This document shows, in pieces, positions 40,500 through 51,313 of a stretch of DNA of 64,000 nucleotides (the stretch's first letter is position 1; each line of letters opens with the position of its first letter). The position numbers and the translations under genes were made by a program. The notes beneath the pieces were generated by a model that was not told the origin of the DNA, did not search any database, and saw nothing but the letters and a program-made list of their open reading frames with translations. This stretch comes from Limibaculum sp. (GTDB taxonomy: Bacteria; Pseudomonadota; Alphaproteobacteria; Rhodobacterales; Rhodobacteraceae). The DNA lies in assembly GCA_039805905.1 (NCBI GenBank), contig JBDIVM010000006.1, positions 120,827-184,826 of the forward strand. The letters are read 5' to 3'.

Positions 40500-40511
40500 T
40501 GGTATACCACG
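40500..40511. promoter_or_regulatory. Putative GntR operator (copy 1)
   Basis: TGGTATACCACG palindrome 72 bp upstream of gntR; identical copy at 48059. Confidence 0.75.
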
Positions 40512-40582: not shown

Positions 40583-41293
40583 ATGGGCAAGACCCTGGAC
40601 CTCAAGCCGGTGGATGGCTCCTTCAGCCTGAAGGAGCACATCTATGACGTGCTCAAGACCAGCATCATGGATCTGGACATCTACGAGCCCGACACCAACC
40701 TGCGCATGGACGAACGGACTCTGGCGGAGCGGCTCGGAATCAGCCGCACGCCGATCCGCGAGGCGATCATGCGGCTCGAGCAGGAGGGATTCGTCGAGAT
40801 CGCACCGCGCCGGGGCGTCTACATCAAGCGCAAGAGCCTCGACGAGATCCTCGAGATGATCACCGTCTGGGCGGCGCTCGAGAGCATGGCCGCCCGCATC
40901 GCCTGCGGGCGCGCGAGCGACGTCGAGATCGCCCGGCTCCGCCGGATCGCCGCACCATTCAACAAGGACAAGGCCAGGGCGCAGATCAGCGAGTACTCCG
41001 AGGCGAACATCGAATTCCACCTCTGCGTGCTCGGCCTCTCAGGGTGCCGGATGCTGCAGGACATTGCCAACGGGCTGTTCACCCACCTGAAGGCGGTGCG
41101 CCGCAAGGCGCTGCAGGACACCGCCCGTGCGGACCGTTCGGTGGTCGACCACATGAACATCATCCAGGCGATCGAGGAGCGGAATGCCGACCTCGCCGCC
41201 GAACTCGTCCGTGAGCATACGTTCCGGCTGCACGACTATATCCGCCGGAGCTGGAAGATGATCGTCGGCCCTGCCCAGGCGGGCGAGGCCTGA
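40583..41293 (+). CDS. GntR-family (FCD domain) transcriptional regulator
   Basis: [18 protein letters not shown]; C-terminal ANIEFH...DHMNII. Confidence 0.92.
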
Positions 41294-41325: not shown

Positions 41326-43065
41326 ATGGCAGTGGCACCGAGCATGGCGCCCGAACCGACCGCCGAGGCAACGCAGGAACTGACCGATGGGTTCCATCTG
41401 GTCATCGATGCGCTGAAGCTGAACGGCGTGAAGACGATCTATCATGTGCCCGGGATTCCGGTGACGGATCTCGGCCGCATGGCCCAGGCCGAGGGCATCC
41501 GGGTGATCTCGTTCCGACACGAGTCGAACGCGGGCAATGCCGCGGCCATCGCGGGCTACCTGACGAGGAAGCCGGGCATCTGCCTCACCGTGTCCGCGCC
41601 GGGGTTCCTGAACGGCCTCGTCTCGCTCGCCCATGCCACGACCAACTGCTGGCCGATGATCCTGATTTCCGGCTCCTCCGAGCGCGAGATCGTCGACCTG
41701 CAGAAGGGCGACTACGAGGAGATGGACCAGCTCGCCATCGCCAAGCCGCTCTGCAAGGCCGCCTACCGGATCCTGAAGGCCGAGGACATCGGCACTGGTG
41801 TGGCACGGGCCATCCGCGCCGCGGTCTCGGGCCGCCCGGGCGGGGTCTATCTCGACCTGCCGGCCAGCCTGCTCGGCCAGGTCATGGACGCGGCCGAGGG
41901 CGCAAAGTCGCTGGTCAAGGTCGTGGACCCCGCCCCGGCGCAGTTCCCGGCGCCGGCCGCCATCGAGCGGGTCATCGAGGTGCTGAAGAGCGCGAAGAAG
42001 CCGCTCATCATCCTCGGCAAGGGCGCCGCCTACGCCCAGTGCGACGACAGCGTGCGCCGCTTCGTCGAGACCTCGGGCATCCCCTATATCGCGATGTCGA
42101 TGGCAAAGGGTCTTCTCCCCGATGACCATCCGCAATACGCGGGCGCCGCGCGCTCGCTGGTGCTGGCCGAGTCGGATGTGGTCATGCTGATCGGGGCACG
42201 GCTCAACTGGCTCCTGTCGCACGGACGCGGCAAGCAGTGGGGCAGGCCCCACTCCAAGACTTTCGTCCACATCGACATCGACCCGAAGGAGATGGACTCG
42301 AACCAGCCCGTCGCCGCGCCGCTGGTGGGCGACATCGAGTCGTGCCTTGGCGCCCTGCTCGACAGGATGGGGCCGGGCTGGGCGAGGCCGCCCGCCGAAT
42401 GGACGGGCATGGTGCGCGAGAAGGCCGCGGCGAATGTCGCGAAGATGGCCCCGAAGCTCATGAACAACAACGTGCCGATGGATTTCCACGGCGCGCTGGG
42501 CCGGCTGAAGAAGATCATCGCCGATCACCCGGACGCGATCCTGGTGAACGAAGGTGCCAACACGCTCGACTTCGCCCGCTCGGTCATCGACATGGCGAAG
42601 CCCCGGAAGCGGCTCGATGTCGGGACATGGGGGGTGATGGGCATCGGAATGGGCAGCGCAATCGCCGCCGCGATCGAGACCGGCCAGAATGTCATTGCGG
42701 TCGAGGGCGACTCGGCCTTCGGCTTCTCCGGCATGGAGGTCGAGACCATATGCCGCTACGGCCTCCCGGTCTGCGTCGTGATCTTCAACAACTCCGGCAT
42801 CTACCGGGGCACCGACACCGACCCGACGGGGCGCGACCCGGGCACCACGGTGTTCGTCAGGGAATCCAGGTATCACATGATGATGGAGGCCTTCGGCGGT
42901 ATCGGGGTCGAGGCCCGCTCGCCGGACGACCTCGAACGGGCGGTGCGCGACGCCATCGCGTCCCGCAGGCCGACCCTGGTCAACGCCATCATCGACCCGC
43001 AGGCCGGGACCGAATCCGGGCGGATCGGCAATCTCAATCCGCAGAGTGCCGTCAAGAAGAAGTGA
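41326..43065 (+). CDS. oxc: Oxalyl-CoA decarboxylase
   Basis: [55 protein letters not shown]. Confidence 0.96.
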
Positions 43066-43126: not shown

Positions 43127-44401
43127 ATGAAAGCTCTGGAAGGCGTCCGGATCCTCGACTTCACCCATGTCCAGTCGGGCCCGACCTGCACCCAGCTCCT
43201 CGCCTGGCTCGGCGCCGACGTCATCAAGGTCGAGCGGCCGGGCGAAGGCGACGCGACTCGCAAGCAGCTTGTGGACGTGCCGGGGGCCGACAGCCTCTAT
43301 TTCACCATGCTGAACCACAACAAGCGGTCGATCGAGCTGAACTCGAAGAACGAGACCGGCAAGGAGGTCCTGACCCGGCTGGTCAGGGCCTGCGACGTGC
43401 TGGTCGAGAACTTCGCCCCGGGCGCCCTCGACCGCATGGGCTTCGGCTGGGAGGTGATCCAGAAGCTCAACCCGCGCATGATCATGGCCTCGGTAAAGGG
43501 CTTCGGCCCGGGCAAGTACGAGGACTGCAAGGTCTATGAGAATGTCGCGCAGTGCGCCGGCGGCTCTGCCTCGACCACTGGCTTCCGCGACGGCCTGCCG
43601 CTGGTCACCGGCGCCCAGATCGGCGATTCCGGCACCGGGCTCCACCTGGCGCTTGGCATCGTCGCTGCGCTGTTCCAGCGCGAGAAGACGGGCCGCGGCC
43701 AGAAGGTGCTGGCGGCGATGCAGGACGGTGTCCTGAACCTCTGCCGCGTCAAGCTGCGCGACCAGCAAAGGCTGGAGAAGGGACCGCTGACCGAGTACTC
43801 CCAGTTTGGCGAGGGCATTCCCTTCGGAGACGCGGTGCCCCGCGCCGGCAACGACTCGGGCGGCGGCCAGCCCGGCCGCATCCTGAAGTGCAAGGGCTGG
43901 GAGACCGATCCCAACGCCTACACCTACTTCATCACCCAGGCTGCGGTCTGGGAGAAGGTCTGCGACGTGATCGGCAGGCCCGAGTGGAAGACCGACCCGA
44001 AATTTGCCACCCCAAAGGCGCGGTTGCCGCATCTGAACGAGATATTCAGCGAAATCGAGAAATGGACCATGACCAAGTCCAAGTTCGAGGTCATGGACAT
44101 CTGCAATCCGCTCGATATTCCCGTCGGCCCGATCCTCAGCATGAAGGAGATCGCGGCGGACGAGGGGCTGCGGGCAACCGGCACCATCGTCGAGGTGGAC
44201 CATCCTGAACGCGGGCCCTACCTCAGCGTCGGCATGCCGATCAAGATGTCGGACAGCCCGGCCGAGGTCGTCCGCTCGCCGCTCCTCGGCGAGCACACGG
44301 TCGAGATCCTCTCAGGCGTTCTCGGCTACTCGGCCGAGGACATCGACCGGATCGCTGCCTCGGGCGCAGTCGGCGACATCCGGCGCGCCGCGGCGGAATG
44401 A
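43127..44401 (+). CDS. frc: Formyl-CoA:oxalate CoA-transferase
   Basis: [36 protein letters not shown]. Confidence 0.96.
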
Positions 44402-44495: not shown

Positions 44496-45416
44496 ATGCG
44501 CCTCATCGTCAACGGACAGCAGGCCTTCGGCAAGGCGGCACTCGAGAAGATCCTCGAGGCCGGCAGGGACGAGGTGGTCGGCGTCTACACCGCACCCGAC
44601 AAGGACGGCCGCCCCGTCGACCCGCTGAAGGAGGCCGCGCTCGCCCACGGCCTGCCGGTGTTCCAGCCGGCGAACTACAAGGACGGCGAGGCCCTCGACC
44701 AGATGCGCGCGCTGGACGCCGACCTGATGGTCATGGCCTACATGATCATCTTCGTGCCCGAGGAGGCGCGGAACGTGCCCAGGCTCGGCTCGATCTGCTT
44801 CCACCCGTCGCTCCTGCCGCTGCACCGCGGCCCGTCCTCGATCAACTGGCCGATCATCTGGGGTGCGACGAAGACGGGCTTCTCGTGGTTCTACCCGACC
44901 GACGGGCTCGACGAGGGCGACATCCTGATGCAGTGGGAGTGCCCGATCGGCCCGGACGAGACGCTGGGGGATGTCTATTTCAAGAAGATCTTCCCCGCCG
45001 GCGTCGACTCCGTCCTCACGGTCTGCGATCTCTTCCGCGCCGGCAACCCGCCGCGCGCGCCGCAGGACGAGTCGAAGGCGACCTACGAGAGCTGGTGCCG
45101 CAAGCGGGACGCCGCGATCGACTGGGCAAGGCCGGCAGCCGATGTCTACAACCTGATCCGGGGCTGCAATCCGCAGCCCGGCGCCTGGACGACGCTCGGC
45201 GGGGCCGAGGTCCAGGTCTTCGACAGCGCCCGCGCGGGCGAGGGCCCCGGCACGCCCGGCGAGGTCGCATCCGTGTCCGCGGATGGCGTGGTTGTGCAGT
45301 CGGGCGGCGGGCGAATACTTCTAAAACGTGTCCGGCCCGCGGGCGGGGGCAAGGTGCCCGCCGCGGAATGGGCTTCGGAGGCAGGGGTCGCCGCGGGCAC
45401 GCGGCTCGGCTCCTGA
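44496..45416 (+). CDS. Formyltransferase-family protein resembling the N-terminal domain of 10-formyl-THF dehydrogenase (ALDH1L1)
   Basis: [55 protein letters not shown]. Confidence 0.8.
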
Positions 45417-45448
45417 TGGCGCGGAAACACTACTCGGGGAAAATCTGC

Positions 45449-47116
45449 ATGTCGGACATCGAAATCGCCCGCAACGCAAACAAGAAGCCGATCCAGGAGA
45501 TCGGGGCAAAGCTGGGAATCCCCGGCGAGCATCTCCTGCCGTTCGGCCATGACAAGGCCAAGGTCTCGGCCGATTTCATTCAGTCAATTCAGGGCAACAA
45601 GACCGGCAACCTGATCCTGGTCACTGCGATGACACCGACCCCGGCGGGAGAGGGCAAGACCACCACTACCGTCGGCCTTGGCGACGGGCTCAATGCGATC
45701 GGCAAGAAGGCCGTGGTGTGCATCCGCGAGGCCTCGCTCGGGCCGAACTTCGGCATGAAGGGCGGCGCGGCAGGCGGCGGTTATGCCCAGGTGGTGCCGA
45801 TGGAGGATATGAACCTCCACTTTACCGGCGACTTCCATGCGGTCACCTCGGCGCACAACCTGCTCTCGGCGATGATCGACAACCACATCTACTGGGGCAA
45901 TGCACTCGACATTGACACCCGCCGGGTAGTCTGGCGCCGGGTGATGGACATGAACGACCGGGCGCTGCGCGAGATCGTCTGCTCGCTCGGCGGTGTGGCC
46001 AACGGCTTTCCGCGCGAAGCCGGCTTCGACATCACGGTGGCCTCCGAGGTGATGGCGATACTCTGCCTTTCCACCGACCTGAAGGACCTGCAGCAGCGCT
46101 TGGGCGACATCATCGTGGCCTACCGCCGCGATCGCTCGCCCGTCACCTGCCGAGACGTCAAGGCCGACGGGGCGATGGCGGTGCTCCTGAAGGACGCGCT
46201 GCAGCCGAACCTCGTGCAGACGCTCGAGAACAGCCCTGCCTTCGTCCATGGCGGCCCGTTCGCCAACATCGCCCATGGCTGCAACTCGGTCATGGCCACC
46301 ACGACGGCGCTGAAGCTCGCCGACTATGTGGTGACCGAGGCCGGGTTCGGCGCCGACCTCGGAGCCGAGAAGTTCTTCGACATCAAGTGCCGCATGGCCG
46401 GGCTGAAGCCGAAGGCGGTGGTGATCGTGGCGACCATCCGGGCGCTCAAGATGCATGGCGGGGTCAAGAAGGAGGATCTCGGCAAGGGGAACGTCGAGGC
46501 GCTGCAGAAGGGCTGCGCCAATCTCGGCCGCCACCTCGAGAACCTGAAGCAGTTCGGCGTTCCGGCCATCGTCGCGATCAACCACTTCGTTGCCGACACC
46601 GACGCCGAGATCGACGCGCTGAAGAGCTATGTGACGTCCCAAGGCGCCGACGCCGTGTTGTGTCAGCATTGGGCGAAGGGCTCTGAGGGGATCAAGGACC
46701 TTGCCCACAAGGTGGTCAGGCTGGTCGAGGCCAACACCTCGCAGTTCGCACCGCTATACCCGGACGAGATGGGCCTGTTCCAGAAGATCGAGACCATCGC
46801 CAAGCGCATCTACCGCGCCGACGAGGTAGTGGCCGACAAGAAGATCCGCGACCAGCTGAAGGAATGGGAGGAGGCCGGTTTTGCCGGGCTGCCGGTCTGC
46901 ATGGCCAAGACCCAGTATTCCTTCACCACCGACCCGAGCCGCCGCGGCGCGCCAACCGGTCACAGTCTGCCGGTGCGCGAGGTCCGGCTCTCGGCCGGCG
47001 CCGGCTTCGTCGTGGTGATCTGCGGCGAGATCATGACCATGCCGGGCCTGCCCAGAGTTCCGGCCGCCGAGACCATCTGCCTGAACGAGTCAGGCCAGAT
47101 CGAGGGCCTGTTCTAG
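45449..47116 (+). CDS. fhs: Formate--tetrahydrofolate ligase
   Basis: [50 protein letters not shown]. Confidence 0.97.
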
Positions 47117-47127
47117 GGAGATAGACC

Positions 47128-47988
47128 ATGTTGATCGCCCGGATCATGGTTCCCGTTCGCGGCGACGGCAAGGGAGAGAACGTCCTCTCCCACGCCGCCG
47201 CGGTCGCCCGGCGCCACAATGCCCATATCGAGGCAGTGCACTGCCGGGCCCGGCCGCAGGACATGATCCCCTACGGGGTCGTGGTCCCGCGCGCGCTCAG
47301 GGAGCAGATCGCGGCCCAGGCGGTCGAGCTTGCAGATGCCGAGGAGGCCAGGCTGCAGGGGATGTTCCGCGACCTGGTAGCGCGGCTCGGCATCGAACTG
47401 GTCTCGGACGGCATCCCGTCCCGCGACCGCCCCACCGCAAGCTGGCGCGAGGAGCAGGGCAAGCAGATGGACGTGATCCGGCGCCACGGCCGCCTCGCCG
47501 ACCTGGTGGCGGTGGCCAAGCCTGACCGCGACCGAAATCTCGGCCTCAACACCCTGAAGGCAGCGCTGTTCCATACCGGGCGGCCGGTGCTGGTCTGCCC
47601 GCCGGCGGACCGGGTGCCCGACCAGATCGGCCGGAGGGTCGCGATTGCCTGGAACGGCTCGACCGAGGCCGCCAGGGCGGTCGCGCTCGCACTGCCGCTG
47701 ATCCAGGCGGCAGACGAGGTGGTGGTGCTCGACGGTGGCGGCGAGGACGGTGCCGGCGGCGAGGAACTCATGCACTACCTCGCGATTCGCGGGATCGCGG
47801 CCCGCCGCGAGCGGATCGACGCGCAGAACCATCCCGGCCGGGTGATCCTGCAGGCCGCGGCGGCGGCCGGGGCGGATATCCTGGTGATGGGCGCCTACAG
47901 CCGCAGCCGCGAGCAGGAAACCGTGTTCGGAGGGGCAACCCAGCACGTGGTCGACCATATGACCATGCCGGTCGTGATGGTGCACTGA
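47128..47988 (+). CDS. Tandem-domain universal stress protein
   Basis: IAWNGSTEAARA, LVMGAYSRSR, GGATQHV. Confidence 0.88.
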   Translation: MLIARIMVPVRGDGKGENVLSHAAAVARRHNAHIEAVHCRARPQDMIPYGVVVPRALREQIAAQAVELADAEEARLQGMFRDLVARLGIELVSDGIPSRDRPTASWREEQGKQMDVIRRHGRLADLVAVAKPDRDRNLGLNTLKAALFHTGRPVLVCPPADRVPDQIGRRVAIAWNGSTEAARAVALALPLIQAADEVVVLDGGGEDGAGGEELMHYLAIRGIAARRERIDAQNHPGRVILQAAAAAGADILVMGAYSRSREQETVFGGATQHVVDHMTMPVVMVH

Positions 47989-48058: not shown

Positions 48059-48070
48059 TGGTATACCACG
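48059..48070. promoter_or_regulatory. Putative GntR operator (copy 2)
   Basis: (G)TGGTATACCACG just downstream of a candidate TTGATT-N16-TAGGAT promoter (48023-48050) for tctC. Confidence 0.75.
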
Positions 48071-48209: not shown

Positions 48210-49178
48210 ATGGCATTCACACGTCGATTGATGATGGCGGCAAGCGCTGCCGTAATCGGCTTCGCCGGGCTGACCGGCGTCGCACAGGCCTGGGAGCCGA
48301 CGAAGCCGATCGACTTCGTCATCATGGCCGGCCCGGGTGGCGGCGCGGACCAGATCGCGCGCTTCATCCAGTCTGTCGTCGAGAAGAACGGCATGTCGCC
48401 GCGTCCGCTGGTGCCGAACAACAAGGGCGGCGGGTCGGGCGCCGAGGCGCTGATCGCGCTGAAGGGTGCATCCGATCCGGATCACACGATCCTGGTGACG
48501 CTGAACTCGTTCTTCACCACGCCGCTGCGCCAGCCGAACCTCGGCATCGACATCATGACCTTCACGCCCATCCAGATGATGGGGGTCGATCCCTTCGTCC
48601 TCTGGGTCCACAAGGACTCGGGCATCACCAGCTTCGAGCAGTGGGTCGATACGGTGAAGGCCGAGGGCGGCAACTACGTGATGGGCGGAACCGGCAAGGG
48701 TCAGGAAGACTCGATCGTGATCGCCTGGCTCGAGAAGAACTACGACATCAAGGTCAAGTACATCCCCTACAAGGGCGGCGGCGCCGTGGCCAAGGATCTC
48801 GCCGGCAAGCAGGTGGGCGCGACGGTGAACAATCCGGCCGAGGCTCGCGGCTTCTACCAGTCCGGCGATGTCGTTCCGCTGATCGCGTTCTCGGACCAGC
48901 GGCTGCCGAACCTGCCGGACGTGCGCACGGTGAAGGAACTCGGCAAGGACTTCAGCTACTACAACCAGCGTGCCATCGTGGGCGCCCCCGGCATGTCGGC
49001 TGATGCCGCTGCCTTCTACCAGGATCTCTTCGGCAAGGTTGCGGCCTCGGCCGAGTGGCAGGGCTATCTCAGCTCCGAGAGCCTCGAGGCGCTGACGCTC
49101 GATCCCGAGCAGCAGAAGGCCTACTGGGCGACCCAGGTCGAGCGGCACAAGGAGCTGTTCAAGGACATGGGCGAGTAA
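48210..49178 (+). CDS. tctC: Tripartite tricarboxylate transporter substrate-binding protein (Bug/TctC)
   Basis: Signal peptide; GPGGGAD..AR, NKGGGSG, PYKGGG. Confidence 0.9.
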   Translation: MAFTRRLMMAASAAVIGFAGLTGVAQAWEPTKPIDFVIMAGPGGGADQIARFIQSVVEKNGMSPRPLVPNNKGGGSGAEALIALKGASDPDHTILVTLNSFFTTPLRQPNLGIDIMTFTPIQMMGVDPFVLWVHKDSGITSFEQWVDTVKAEGGNYVMGGTGKGQEDSIVIAWLEKNYDIKVKYIPYKGGGAVAKDLAGKQVGATVNNPAEARGFYQSGDVVPLIAFSDQRLPNLPDVRTVKELGKDFSYYNQRAIVGAPGMSADAAAFYQDLFGKVAASAEWQGYLSSESLEALTLDPEQQKAYWATQVERHKELFKDMGE

Positions 49179-49207
49179 GGACAGCCAATCCAGGGGAGGG
49201 CCGGCAG

Positions 49208-49732
49208 ATGCGTCGCGCTGAGATCATCACGGCCGGGGTGCTGGCCCTCTTTTCGCTCTACGTCATGTGGAAGGCCGGCCAGCCGGCATGGGAGGGTGTC
49301 GCCAGATGGAGCAACATCACCTATGTCAGCGGTGAAGGCCCGGGATCCGGCTTCTGGCCGTTCTGGCTGGCTGCCGTCATGCTGGGCTGCACGGTCTGGA
49401 TCGCCGTGAACTGGTGGCGGCGGGCCTCCCCGCTGTCGCGCTCCGGCGAGCGGTTCCTCGACGATCACGGCATAGGCATGCTGATCAAGGTCGGGGGCGG
49501 GGTCCTGGCGCTGATCGGGCTCAACCACATCGTCGGGATGTACGGCGCGATGGCGCTGTTCCTGTTCTACTACCTCTATTTCCTCGGCCGGCACCGGATC
49601 GGCCTGTCGCTCGCGATCGCGCTCGGGGCGCCGGTCGCCACGTTCTTCTTCTTCGATGTCGCGATGCGGATCGTGCTGCCGAAGGGCTATCTCGAGCCGC
49701 TCTTCATCCCGCTCTACGACATCTTCCTCTGA
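49208..49732 (+). CDS. tctB: Tripartite tricarboxylate transporter small membrane subunit
   Basis: Four TM segments; GPGSGFWP, LPKG; between tctC and tctA. Confidence 0.85.
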   Translation: MRRAEIITAGVLALFSLYVMWKAGQPAWEGVARWSNITYVSGEGPGSGFWPFWLAAVMLGCTVWIAVNWWRRASPLSRSGERFLDDHGIGMLIKVGGGVLALIGLNHIVGMYGAMALFLFYYLYFLGRHRIGLSLAIALGAPVATFFFFDVAMRIVLPKGYLEPLFIPLYDIFL

Positions 49733-49795
49733 TCCAGGGCTTCGTTCCGGGGCCGGCATGCGCAATCCGCCCGCCGATCCCGCCGGGAGACAAAG

Positions 49796-51313
49796 ATGGA
49801 CATCCTCTCGCATCTGATCGATGGCATCCTGACCGCGTTCCAGCCGCTGAACCTGATGATAGTGATCATCGGGGTCACCATCGGCCTGATCATCGGCGCG
49901 ATGCCGGGGCTCGGGTCGGTCAACGGGGTCGCGATCCTGCTGCCGGCCACCTTCCTGGTGCCGCCGACGACGGCGATGATCTTCCTCGCCGCGATCTATT
50001 ACGGGGCGATGTATGGCGGCGCGATCTCGTCGATCACGCTCGGGATACCGGGAGCATCGACGGCGGTTGCCACGGTATTCGACGGTCGGCCGCTGGCGCT
50101 CCAGGGCAAGGCGGACAAGGCGCTGGTCGCGGCGGCGGTCGCCTCCTGCGTCGGCGGCACGGTGGCCAACATCCTGTTTACGGCCTTCGCTCCGCCACTG
50201 GCGCATGTTGCGCTGAGCTTCGGCCCGCCCGAGATCTTCGCGCTGATGCTGCTCGCCTTCGCCACCTTCATCGGCCTCGGCGGCGACGACATCCCGAAGA
50301 CCATCCTCTCGATCTGCCTCGGCCTCGTCCTCGCTACGGTGGGCTTCGACGAGATCTCCGGGGCGCCCCGTCTGGTCTTCTTCGAGATCACCGGCTTCAT
50401 GCACGGCATCAACTTCCTGGTTCTGGCGATCGGGGTCTATGGCATCGGCGAGATGCTGTGGACGATCAACGCGTCCCGCAACGACGTCTCGATGACCTCC
50501 GTCGAGATCGGCGCGCGCCGGATCGTGCTCGCGGCGAAGGAATCCTTCACCGCCTGGCGCGGCATGGCGATCGGCTCCTCGCTCGGGTTCTTCGTCGGCG
50601 TGCTGCCGGCGGCCGGTGCCACGCCCGGCGCGCTGATGGCCTACGGCCTGACCAAGATGACGGCGAAGAACCCGCAGAACTTCGGCAAGGGGGCGCTCAA
50701 CGGCGTGACCGCACCGGAATCCGCGAACAACTCGGCGGCCGCCGGCTCGATGCTGCCGATGATCACGCTCGGCATCCCCGGCTCGCCCACCACTGCAATC
50801 CTGCTCGGCGGCATGGTGATCTGGGGCCTGCAGCCGGGACCGCGGCTCTTCGCTGAGCAGCCCGAGTTCGTCTGGCCCCTGATCGGCTCGCTCTACGTCT
50901 CGAACCTGATGGCGATGGTGATGAACCTGGCGTTCATTCCGATGTTCCTGTGGATGCTGCGGATGCCGTTCACGATCCTCGCGCCGATGATCTTCGTGCT
51001 CTCGGTGGTTGGCGGCTATGCCGCGACGCAGGACATGCACGACGTCTGGCTGATGCTGATTTTCGGGATCGGCGCCTTCTTCCTCAGGATGCTCGACTAC
51101 CCCTTGGCGCCCGCGGTGCTCGCGATCGTGCTGGGCCCGCAGACCGAGGAGTCGCTGCGCCAGTCGCTGCTGATGAGTTCGGGCGATCCCTTGATCTTCG
51201 TCAGCCGGCCGATCGCCGGTCCGATCACCGTGATCGCGCTCATCCTGATCTTCCTGCCCCTCGTCGGCGTCATCCGGCGACGGCTCGGAGCAGGGACGAG
51301 GACGGCGACCTGA
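49796..51313 (+). CDS. tctA: Tripartite tricarboxylate transporter large membrane subunit
   Basis: GAMPGLG, YYGAMYGG, APESANN, LGIPGSPTTA. Confidence 0.95.
   Translation: MDILSHLIDGILTAFQPLNLMIVIIGVTIGLIIGAMPGLGSVNGVAILLPATFLVPPTTAMIFLAAIYYGAMYGGAISSITLGIPGASTAVATVFDGRPLALQGKADKALVAAAVASCVGGTVANILFTAFAPPLAHVALSFGPPEIFALMLLAFATFIGLGGDDIPKTILSICLGLVLATVGFDEISGAPRLVFFEITGFMHGINFLVLAIGVYGIGEMLWTINASRNDVSMTSVEIGARRIVLAAKESFTAWRGMAIGSSLGFFVGVLPAAGATPGALMAYGLTKMTAKNPQNFGKGALNGVTAPESANNSAAAGSMLPMITLGIPGSPTTAILLGGMVIWGLQPGPRLFAEQPEFVWPLIGSLYVSNLMAMVMNLAFIPMFLWMLRMPFTILAPMIFVLSVVGGYAATQDMHDVWLMLIFGIGAFFLRMLDYPLAPAVLAIVLGPQTEESLRQSLLMSSGDPLIFVSRPIAGPITVIALILIFLPLVGVIRRRLGAGTRTAT

Follow-up and report, generated by a model that had tools for sequence, protein, structure and literature searches.

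The closest described relatives of the transporter considered here are the citrate systems TctCBA and BctCBA of Salmonella and Bordetella, which work with the two-component systems TctDE and BctDE, and the binding proteins of other tripartite tricarboxylate transporters (TTTs), namely AdpC (adipate), MatC (malate), TphC (terephthalate), BugD and BugE (aspartate and glutamate) and Bug27 (nicotinate and quinolinate), none of whose ligands is a C2 acid. A review of the family lists citrate, amino acids, nicotinate, adipate and terephthalate among other ligands and does not mention oxalate (PMC5812351). The OxlT protein of the Oxalobacter formigenes Frc-Oxc-OxlT system (TIGR04259) is an unrelated oxalate:formate exchanger of the major facilitator superfamily (MFS), and it exports formate. 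Here we describe a tctCBA gene set in a 64,000-nucleotide window (the whole stretch of DNA analyzed) from the alphaproteobacterium Limibaculum sp. (assembly GCA_039805905.1, contig JBDIVM010000006.1, positions 120,827 to 184,826). We consider it probable, at about 0.8, that this TctCBA is the cell's oxalate importer. This reading is based on reshuffled linkage to three oxalate-activating routes, the lack of an identified OxlT, a nearly complementary distribution of OxlT, a regulon that includes formate dehydrogenase (FDH), and a clade-specific binding pocket. The three genes are:

48210..49178, + strand: tctC, periplasmic solute-binding protein, 322 amino acids (PF03401, 86.5 bits, cut-off 27)
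49208..49732, + strand: tctB, small membrane subunit, 174 amino acids (PF07331, 56.3 bits; four hydrophobic segments)
49796..51313, + strand: tctA, large membrane subunit, 505 amino acids (PF01970, 464.5 bits)

All three are intact open reading frames with their own ribosome-binding sites, all score above the Pfam cut-offs, and the preliminary description was right that a complete tctCBA lies behind an oxc/frc cluster. Subunit composition and gene order are those of the citrate systems; unlike those systems, the locus has a putative GntR operator in place of a two-component system, and its neighbors are oxalate genes. No TctDE/BctDE-type pair is adjacent to tctCBA or recurs in the clade neighborhoods surveyed. 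A crude scan finds four hydrophobic segments in TctB and at least 10 in TctA, where 4-5 and 9-12 transmembrane segments are expected of a TTT. The first copy of the TctA motif G-Hy3-G-Hy3-G-Hy2-P-G-Hy-G is exact (G26-G40), and the second is recognizable, reading P-A-A-G throughout the clade to which this transporter belongs. TctC has by eye an N-terminal signal peptide with a TRR motif and an AQA cleavage site before W28. Its AlphaFold2 model has a mean confidence (pLDDT) of 93, the top 17 Foldseek matches are all TTT binding proteins, and its fold aligns with TphC, Bug27, AdpC, BugD and MatC at TM scores of 0.77-0.90. The solved relatives are only 19-25% identical, and consequently the ligand cannot be transferred by homology. 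By every feature tested, save a variant pincer motif, TctCBA is a bona fide TTT, and it lies outside the citrate subfamily.

Gene neighborhoods give an indication of the ligand. They were compared in the 80 closest genome loci (70-85% identity) and in even samples of the class (351 genomes) and the phylum (401 genomes), and a tree was built. The TctC described here falls in clade A (support 100/100, 36 rows), the sister of which is clade B (92/93). Cultured clade-A carriers include Sedimentitalea, Brevirhabdus pacifica and Rhodovulum adriaticum. In 56 of the 80 closest loci, frc is no more than 10 kb away, most of the others being cut off by contig ends. Among the clade-A loci that are fully flanked (n = 59; 8 kb or more of sequence to either side), an oxalate-activating gene is present in 53: oxc with frc in 35, frc with another ThDP enzyme in the position of oxc, which we call ThDP-X (considered below), in 10, an oxalate-CoA-ligase-like gene in seven, and frc alone in one; six have none. 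In clade B the figure is 11 of 15. Several supported nodes of the tree show a change of partner, among them L119/L161, L016 versus L019/L026, and L037 versus the L054 group. Gene order is rearranged as well: tctC may open or close the set, be divergent, or be separated from tctBA. tctAB almost always accompanies tctC. The ligase-like protein has oxalate-CoA ligases as its best Protein Data Bank (PDB) matches (E 5e-130; the next family reaches 4e-64), and its gene usually adjoins one for a PanE/ApbA reductase. PanE/ApbA is the family of the oxalyl-CoA reductase PanE2, and the pairing resembles the route of oxalyl-CoA reduction in Methylorubrum. The ligase/reductase route involves neither formate nor formyl-CoA, and the sole substrate that it has in common with the Frc/Oxc route is oxalate/oxalyl-CoA. 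Linkage of the transporter to both routes therefore makes oxalate the common denominator, and it is chiefly this that speaks against formate or a precursor as cargo. Many homologs at 50-59% identity come from genomes that are not oxalate-negative but have ThDP-X with frc or the ligase.

The distribution of OxlT points in the same direction. TctCBA is not an MFS transporter. OxlT was not found in the genome: the best TIGR04259 score is 62.7, under the cut-off of 335, and an OxlT protein query gave no match. In the class sample, Oxc was found in 16 genomes and ThDP-X in 19, with no overlap. Of these 35 genomes, 22 have a clade A/B TTT without OxlT, nine have OxlT without such a TTT, and four have neither. 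Oxc or ThDP-X occurs in 22 of the 28 genomes that have a clade A/B TctC and in 13 of 319 without a TctC match; OxlT was found in none of the 22 genomes with this TTT and Oxc/ThDP-X, compared with nine of the 13 with Oxc/ThDP-X and no TctC match. These counts are indications, carry no statistical test, and include related genomes that are not independent. OxlT occupies the same functional slot beside gntR-oxc-frc, with the same operator, in loci L142 and L143. In contrast to the exchanger, a TTT employs a binding protein and is expected only to import, which would leave the formate to FDH and to formate-tetrahydrofolate ligase (Fhs). A marine alphaproteobacterial group of Oxc is known, and the main OxlT groups are mostly terrestrial (PMC10192776). 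One of the four genomes in which neither transporter was found has a TRAP transporter (DctP) divergent from oxc-frc (L145:8452-11361), a possible third solution to oxalate uptake.

The transporter also appears to be regulated together with oxalate catabolism. The features upstream of tctC are as follows:

40500..40509, no strand: palindrome TGGTATACCA, second copy, before gntR-oxc-frc
40583..41293, + strand: gntR, GntR/FCD regulator (PF00392 and PF07729), presumed repressor of the regulon
41326..43065, + strand: oxc, oxalyl-CoA decarboxylase (TIGR03254, 970.8 bits, cut-off 739.4)
43127..44401, + strand: frc (TIGR03253, 711.2 bits, cut-off 504.2)
44496..45416, + strand: stand-alone formyltransferase, most like the N-terminal domain of 10-formyl-tetrahydrofolate dehydrogenase (PDB 1s3i, E 2e-60, versus about 1e-41 for Fmt)
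45443..47116, + strand: fhs, formate-tetrahydrofolate ligase, start approximate (NF010030, 939 bits, cut-off 652)
47128..47988, + strand: usp, tandem-type universal stress protein (PF00582)
48059..48068, no strand: palindrome TGGTATACCA, probable GntR (FadR-type) operator, 142 bp before the tctC start

The order on the + strand is thus gntR-oxc-frc-formyltransferase-fhs-usp and then tctC-tctB-tctA, with Oxc, Frc and Fhs all above their curated NCBIfam cut-offs. Perfect copies of the palindrome TGGTATACCA number two in the window (at 40500 and 48059; 100 shuffles produced none) and four in the whole genome (3.85 Mb, 69% GC). The preliminary claim that tctCBA shares its operator with oxc/frc is thereby borne out at the level of a shared palindrome, which is predicted to be the functional operator of the adjacent GntR. 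The remaining two copies lie directly upstream of an FDH alpha-type gene (C7) and of a fused NuoE/NuoF-type FDH gamma-beta gene (C4); the alpha gene (G000:C7:194585; L152:8586) and the fused gene (G000:C4:98355; L151:8356) are on separate contigs, each with its own perfect copy. The apparent regulon would consist of oxalate activation, decarboxylation, formate oxidation and this TTT. It was defined in this genome by the perfect palindrome only, since relaxed operator patterns also match the housekeeping sucCD region. Across clade A, the 400 bp before tctC contain an operator-like site in 23 of 100 loci, and those before gntR in 54 of 62, where 0.0016 per 400 bp is expected for this genome. A sigma-70 scan found no promoter before tctC at threshold; a sequence picked by eye just upstream of the palindrome, TTGATT-16-TAGGAT, matches at 8 of 12 positions and is not claimed.

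The binding pocket of TctC is characteristic of its clade. Fourteen pocket-region positions are all kept in 51 of 53 clade A and B proteins, down to 35% overall identity, but only 7-9 are kept in the two outer sister clades, C and D, and 3-5 in generic paralogs. In the citrate-Zn structure of BctC, Phe48 docks the CH2 groups of citrate and Gln170 binds the third carboxylate (bioRxiv 10.64898/2026.07.27.740893). With BctC numbering carried over by motif spacing, D171, E218, R263 and G197 correspond to D167, E211, R254 and G190 of TctC, and the D49 equivalent is also kept, which suggests a similar metal-water/carboxylate subsite; D215 is changed to N208, Phe48 to A46, Gln170 to E166 and Y212 to T205. 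The citrate-type features Phe48, Gln170, Tyr212 and Asp215 are thus lacking, as is the Cys38-Cys52 pair. D167, E211, R254 and G190 are invariant in 72 aligned homologs; E211 and R254 are found also in generic TTT paralogs, and D167 alone is discriminating. In the pincer motif P-F-x-A-G-G-x-x-D (PMC5812351) the G-G-x-x-D part is kept, and the Pro and Phe are replaced by Met and Ala. The solved binding proteins listed at the outset have the same Venus-flytrap fold and G-G-x-x-D pincer loop, but the docking Phe of P-F-x-A-G-G is Ala here, and the domain-2 loop reads Q-E-D-S here and A-A-S-H in BugD. These changes suggest, and do no more than suggest, a pocket for a small chelating dicarboxylate that lacks a methylene backbone, chelates a cation and has one of its carboxylates bound by Arg. 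Oxalate forms a five-membered chelate ring, the same as the alpha-hydroxy-carboxylate ring of citrate, and a Mg- or Ca-oxalate chelate is a plausible ligand; the odds between free oxalate and such a chelate are about even. In clade-A TctA, Met72 and Ala87 stand where E75 and E90 were proposed for BctA (mapped by eye), and passage of a metal through the membrane is therefore not favored.

Several observations weigh against oxalate as the cargo or weaken the case for it. The 14 pocket positions were partly picked from conservation in these same proteins, and the BctC numbering was mapped through the genome's citrate-type paralog, whose motif spacings agree with those of BctC to within one residue, and not by structural superposition. 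Related genomes and horizontally moved operons are not independent, so that part of the linkage signal is the inheritance of one block, and the six fully flanked clade-A loci noted above have no oxalate-activating gene within 10 kb. The decarboxylase activity of ThDP-X is putative, and the Tyr-Glu motif of Oxc is missing from it. Family scans scored only 3-6 candidates per genome, and absences accordingly mean 'not found'. Oxs-like ligases are present in 20 of 80 genomes without this TTT; at this 25% base rate an unlinked Oxs is uninformative, and genome-level presence of the ligase-like gene was rejected as evidence. Finally, a clade-B tctCBA and oxlT lie in the same oxalate cluster in two phylum-sample genomes (G606 and G586), and strict mutual exclusion of the two transporters was rejected. 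Their coexistence could reflect a high- and low-affinity pair or a different cargo.

Among other explanations, the one that survives best, although we think it unlikely, is that the cargo is a C2 precursor or relative of oxalate, such as glyoxylate, glycolate or oxamate, that is converted inside the cell to oxalate or oxalyl-CoA. Small carboxylates would fit the Phe-less pocket, an isochorismatase-family hydrolase is found in 20 loci, ThDP-X resembles 2-hydroxyacyl-CoA lyases, and a PanE2-type reductase is reversible in principle. Sister clade C lies beside genes for a glyoxylate-type aminotransferase and a YdiJ/GlcD-like flavin adenine dinucleotide (FAD) oxidase, but its pocket differs, with an extra Arg and 7-9 of the 14 positions. 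Neither an oxamate amidohydrolase (GGT family) nor a glyoxylate/glycolate oxidase was found in four or more clade A/B loci. An oxalate-CoA ligase route that consumes ATP is sensible only if oxalate itself enters, and the complementarity is with OxlT, an oxalate carrier. Glyoxylate and oxamate, which the preliminary description had offered as alternatives, are disfavored on these grounds: no enzyme that would make oxalate from either of them recurs beside the TTT, and it is sister clade C, with its different pocket, that has the glyoxylate-aminotransferase context. An indirect role, with TctC as a sensor or with TctCBA importing a co-substrate or an oxalate-carried metal (as proposed for BctCBA) in place of a carbon source, is very unlikely. 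BctC has a part in signaling and binds citrate-Zn/Ni (PMC5812351; bioRxiv 10.64898/2026.07.27.740893), and some clade members are solo tctC genes or coexist with OxlT; however, no two-component system is linked, tctAB is nearly always there, and the genome is otherwise without an identified oxalate entry route.

That the TTT scavenges formate or recaptures leaked formate is less credible still. In its favor are the presence of FDH and Fhs in the regulon, a copy of the shared operator before each of the two FDH genes, and clade-A locus L114, where FDH and usp are the only neighbors, yet the L114 genome has ThDP-X and frc elsewhere under the same operator. Nine clade-A loci have the oxalate-CoA-ligase-like gene instead of oxc or ThDP-X, and those of them in the tree are without nearby formate genes and have the same pocket. 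A citrate or general C4-C6 dicarboxylate importer placed beside oxc-frc by chance would have the commonest TTT ligand (PMC5812351) and several kept BctC pocket residues in its favor, but is highly improbable given a separate citrate-type tctCBA in the genome, the altered Phe48, Gln170 and Asp215 equivalents, and linkage to oxalate genes across many families and gene orders. That citrate-type set, at C2:802 kb, has a TctC 28% identical to the present one, with the BctC-type Cys pair and a WD motif, and probably already covers citrate uptake; its TctC gave no blastn match in E. coli genomes. The genome holds four TctC genes in all, and a further tctC/tctA pair (G000:C4:197627-200244, L153) is divergent from a gene of the GGT family, which includes the oxamate amidohydrolase HpxW.

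If TctCBA is the oxalate importer, the pathway would begin with release of the GntR repressor from TGGTATACCA, which would switch on the transporter, the CoA enzymes and FDH jointly. Periplasmic TctC would capture oxalate, possibly as its Mg or Ca chelate, and hand it to TctAB for inward transport by Na+ or H+ symport, the direction and ion coupling being taken by analogy from the TTT family. Frc would convert oxalate to oxalyl-CoA and Oxc oxalyl-CoA to formyl-CoA, yielding formate and CO2, and the released formate would be retained in the cell, where it would be oxidized by the co-regulated FDH or placed on tetrahydrofolate by Fhs. The proposal of oxalate import in the preliminary description is thus supported by comparative evidence, and this otherwise ordinary-looking TTT very probably has oxalate as its cargo; since family and fold are well known, the surprise is moderate. 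Our literature search, which covered few subscription papers and judged some candidates by title and abstract, found no paper that links a TTT with oxalate, a ligand that the preliminary description did not know to be described for this family. It likewise found nothing on TTT with oxalyl-CoA, tctA with formyl-CoA, HIMB59 with oxalate, or a solute-binding protein or TTT with glyoxylate. Surveys of oxalotrophy rely on oxc, frc and oxlT as markers, to which a TTT importer would add a new marker gene. It may explain how many oxalotrophic aerobes without OxlT take up dilute, largely ion-paired oxalate, and would bring the smallest dicarboxylate into the TTT ligand list. The soluble oxalate-binding protein could be easily expressed and tested, and is a possible biosensor scaffold.

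ThDP-X is a candidate for a second, non-orthologous class of oxalyl-CoA decarboxylase. It is 23-27% identical to Oxc and 61-73% identical to the L128 copy across families, and its best matches, PRK05858 and an actinobacterial 2-hydroxyacyl-CoA lyase, are both under cut-off. Of 18 loci inspected in the class sample, 17 have ThDP-X next to frc and one has it next to oxlT; no sampled genome was found to contain both ThDP-X and Oxc. ThDP-X is in 19 of the 351 class genomes and is present in two streamlined genomes of 1.4 Mb. It occupies the oxc slot between gntR and frc in L128:4913-6586 (- strand) and in L115, L117-L121, L126, L127, L131-L133, L019, L026 and L176-L181. A more ambitious extension, tentative and with the odds somewhat against it, is that the TctC proteins of this clade are widespread receptors with high affinity for Mg/Ca-chelated oxalate and the main oxalate entry of aquatic Alphaproteobacteria, including streamlined 1.4-Mb genomes. 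Many carriers would pair the TTT with ThDP-X as an unrecognized second class of oxalyl-CoA decarboxylase. Surveys based on oxc and oxlT would then miss a large share of oxalotrophs (19 ThDP-X genomes versus 16 with Oxc in the class sample).

Sister clade C (L139, L140, L157, L160, L164 and L168-L170), found in Alpha- and other Proteobacteria, always lies beside genes for a BhcA/SGAT-like aminotransferase and the YdiJ/GlcD-like oxidase, usually with GntR, and is a candidate importer of glycolate, glyoxylate or another 2-hydroxy acid; clade D neighbors are PdxA-like or CoA-transferase genes. The direct neighbors of tctCBA here are usp and a quinone oxidoreductase gene. usp accompanies tctC in 69 of the 80 closest loci and remains with it even where the ligase route replaces oxc/frc; it may be part of the transporter rather than of the enzyme set. 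The formyltransferase between frc and fhs is nearer to the N-terminal domain of eukaryotic 10-formyl-tetrahydrofolate dehydrogenase than to Fmt, and could transfer formyl groups between CoA and tetrahydrofolate or hydrolyze 10-formyl-tetrahydrofolate.

Other genes recur in the oxalate clusters. A conserved protein of about 590 amino acids without a Pfam or NCBIfam match (L010:4239-6017, + strand) occurs in 33 loci, is encoded behind tctA in many oxalate clusters, and was not found in this genome; a protein in the OxlT-type locus L143 (L143:9350-11191) has a similar N-terminus. ADP-forming CoA ligases (L058:629-1822, L031:1385-2284, L156:16039-18204), either a SucCD paralog, in 21 loci, or a fused acetate-CoA-ligase-type protein, are often divergent from gntR and may serve to start the cycle or to regain ATP from formyl-CoA. 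Seventeen oxalate clusters encode a divergent ApbA-like protein, about 350 amino acids long (L063:694-1749), which has a 55% orthologue here outside the cluster (G000:C9:118769-119773). The isochorismatase-family hydrolase (L024:3506-4105) of the 20 clusters has a 73% orthologue elsewhere in this genome (G000:C3:337809), with the near-match palindrome TGGCATACCA upstream. The closest full-length relative has two tandem tctA copies (L002:11588-14898), 84% and 88% identical to the TctA of the window.

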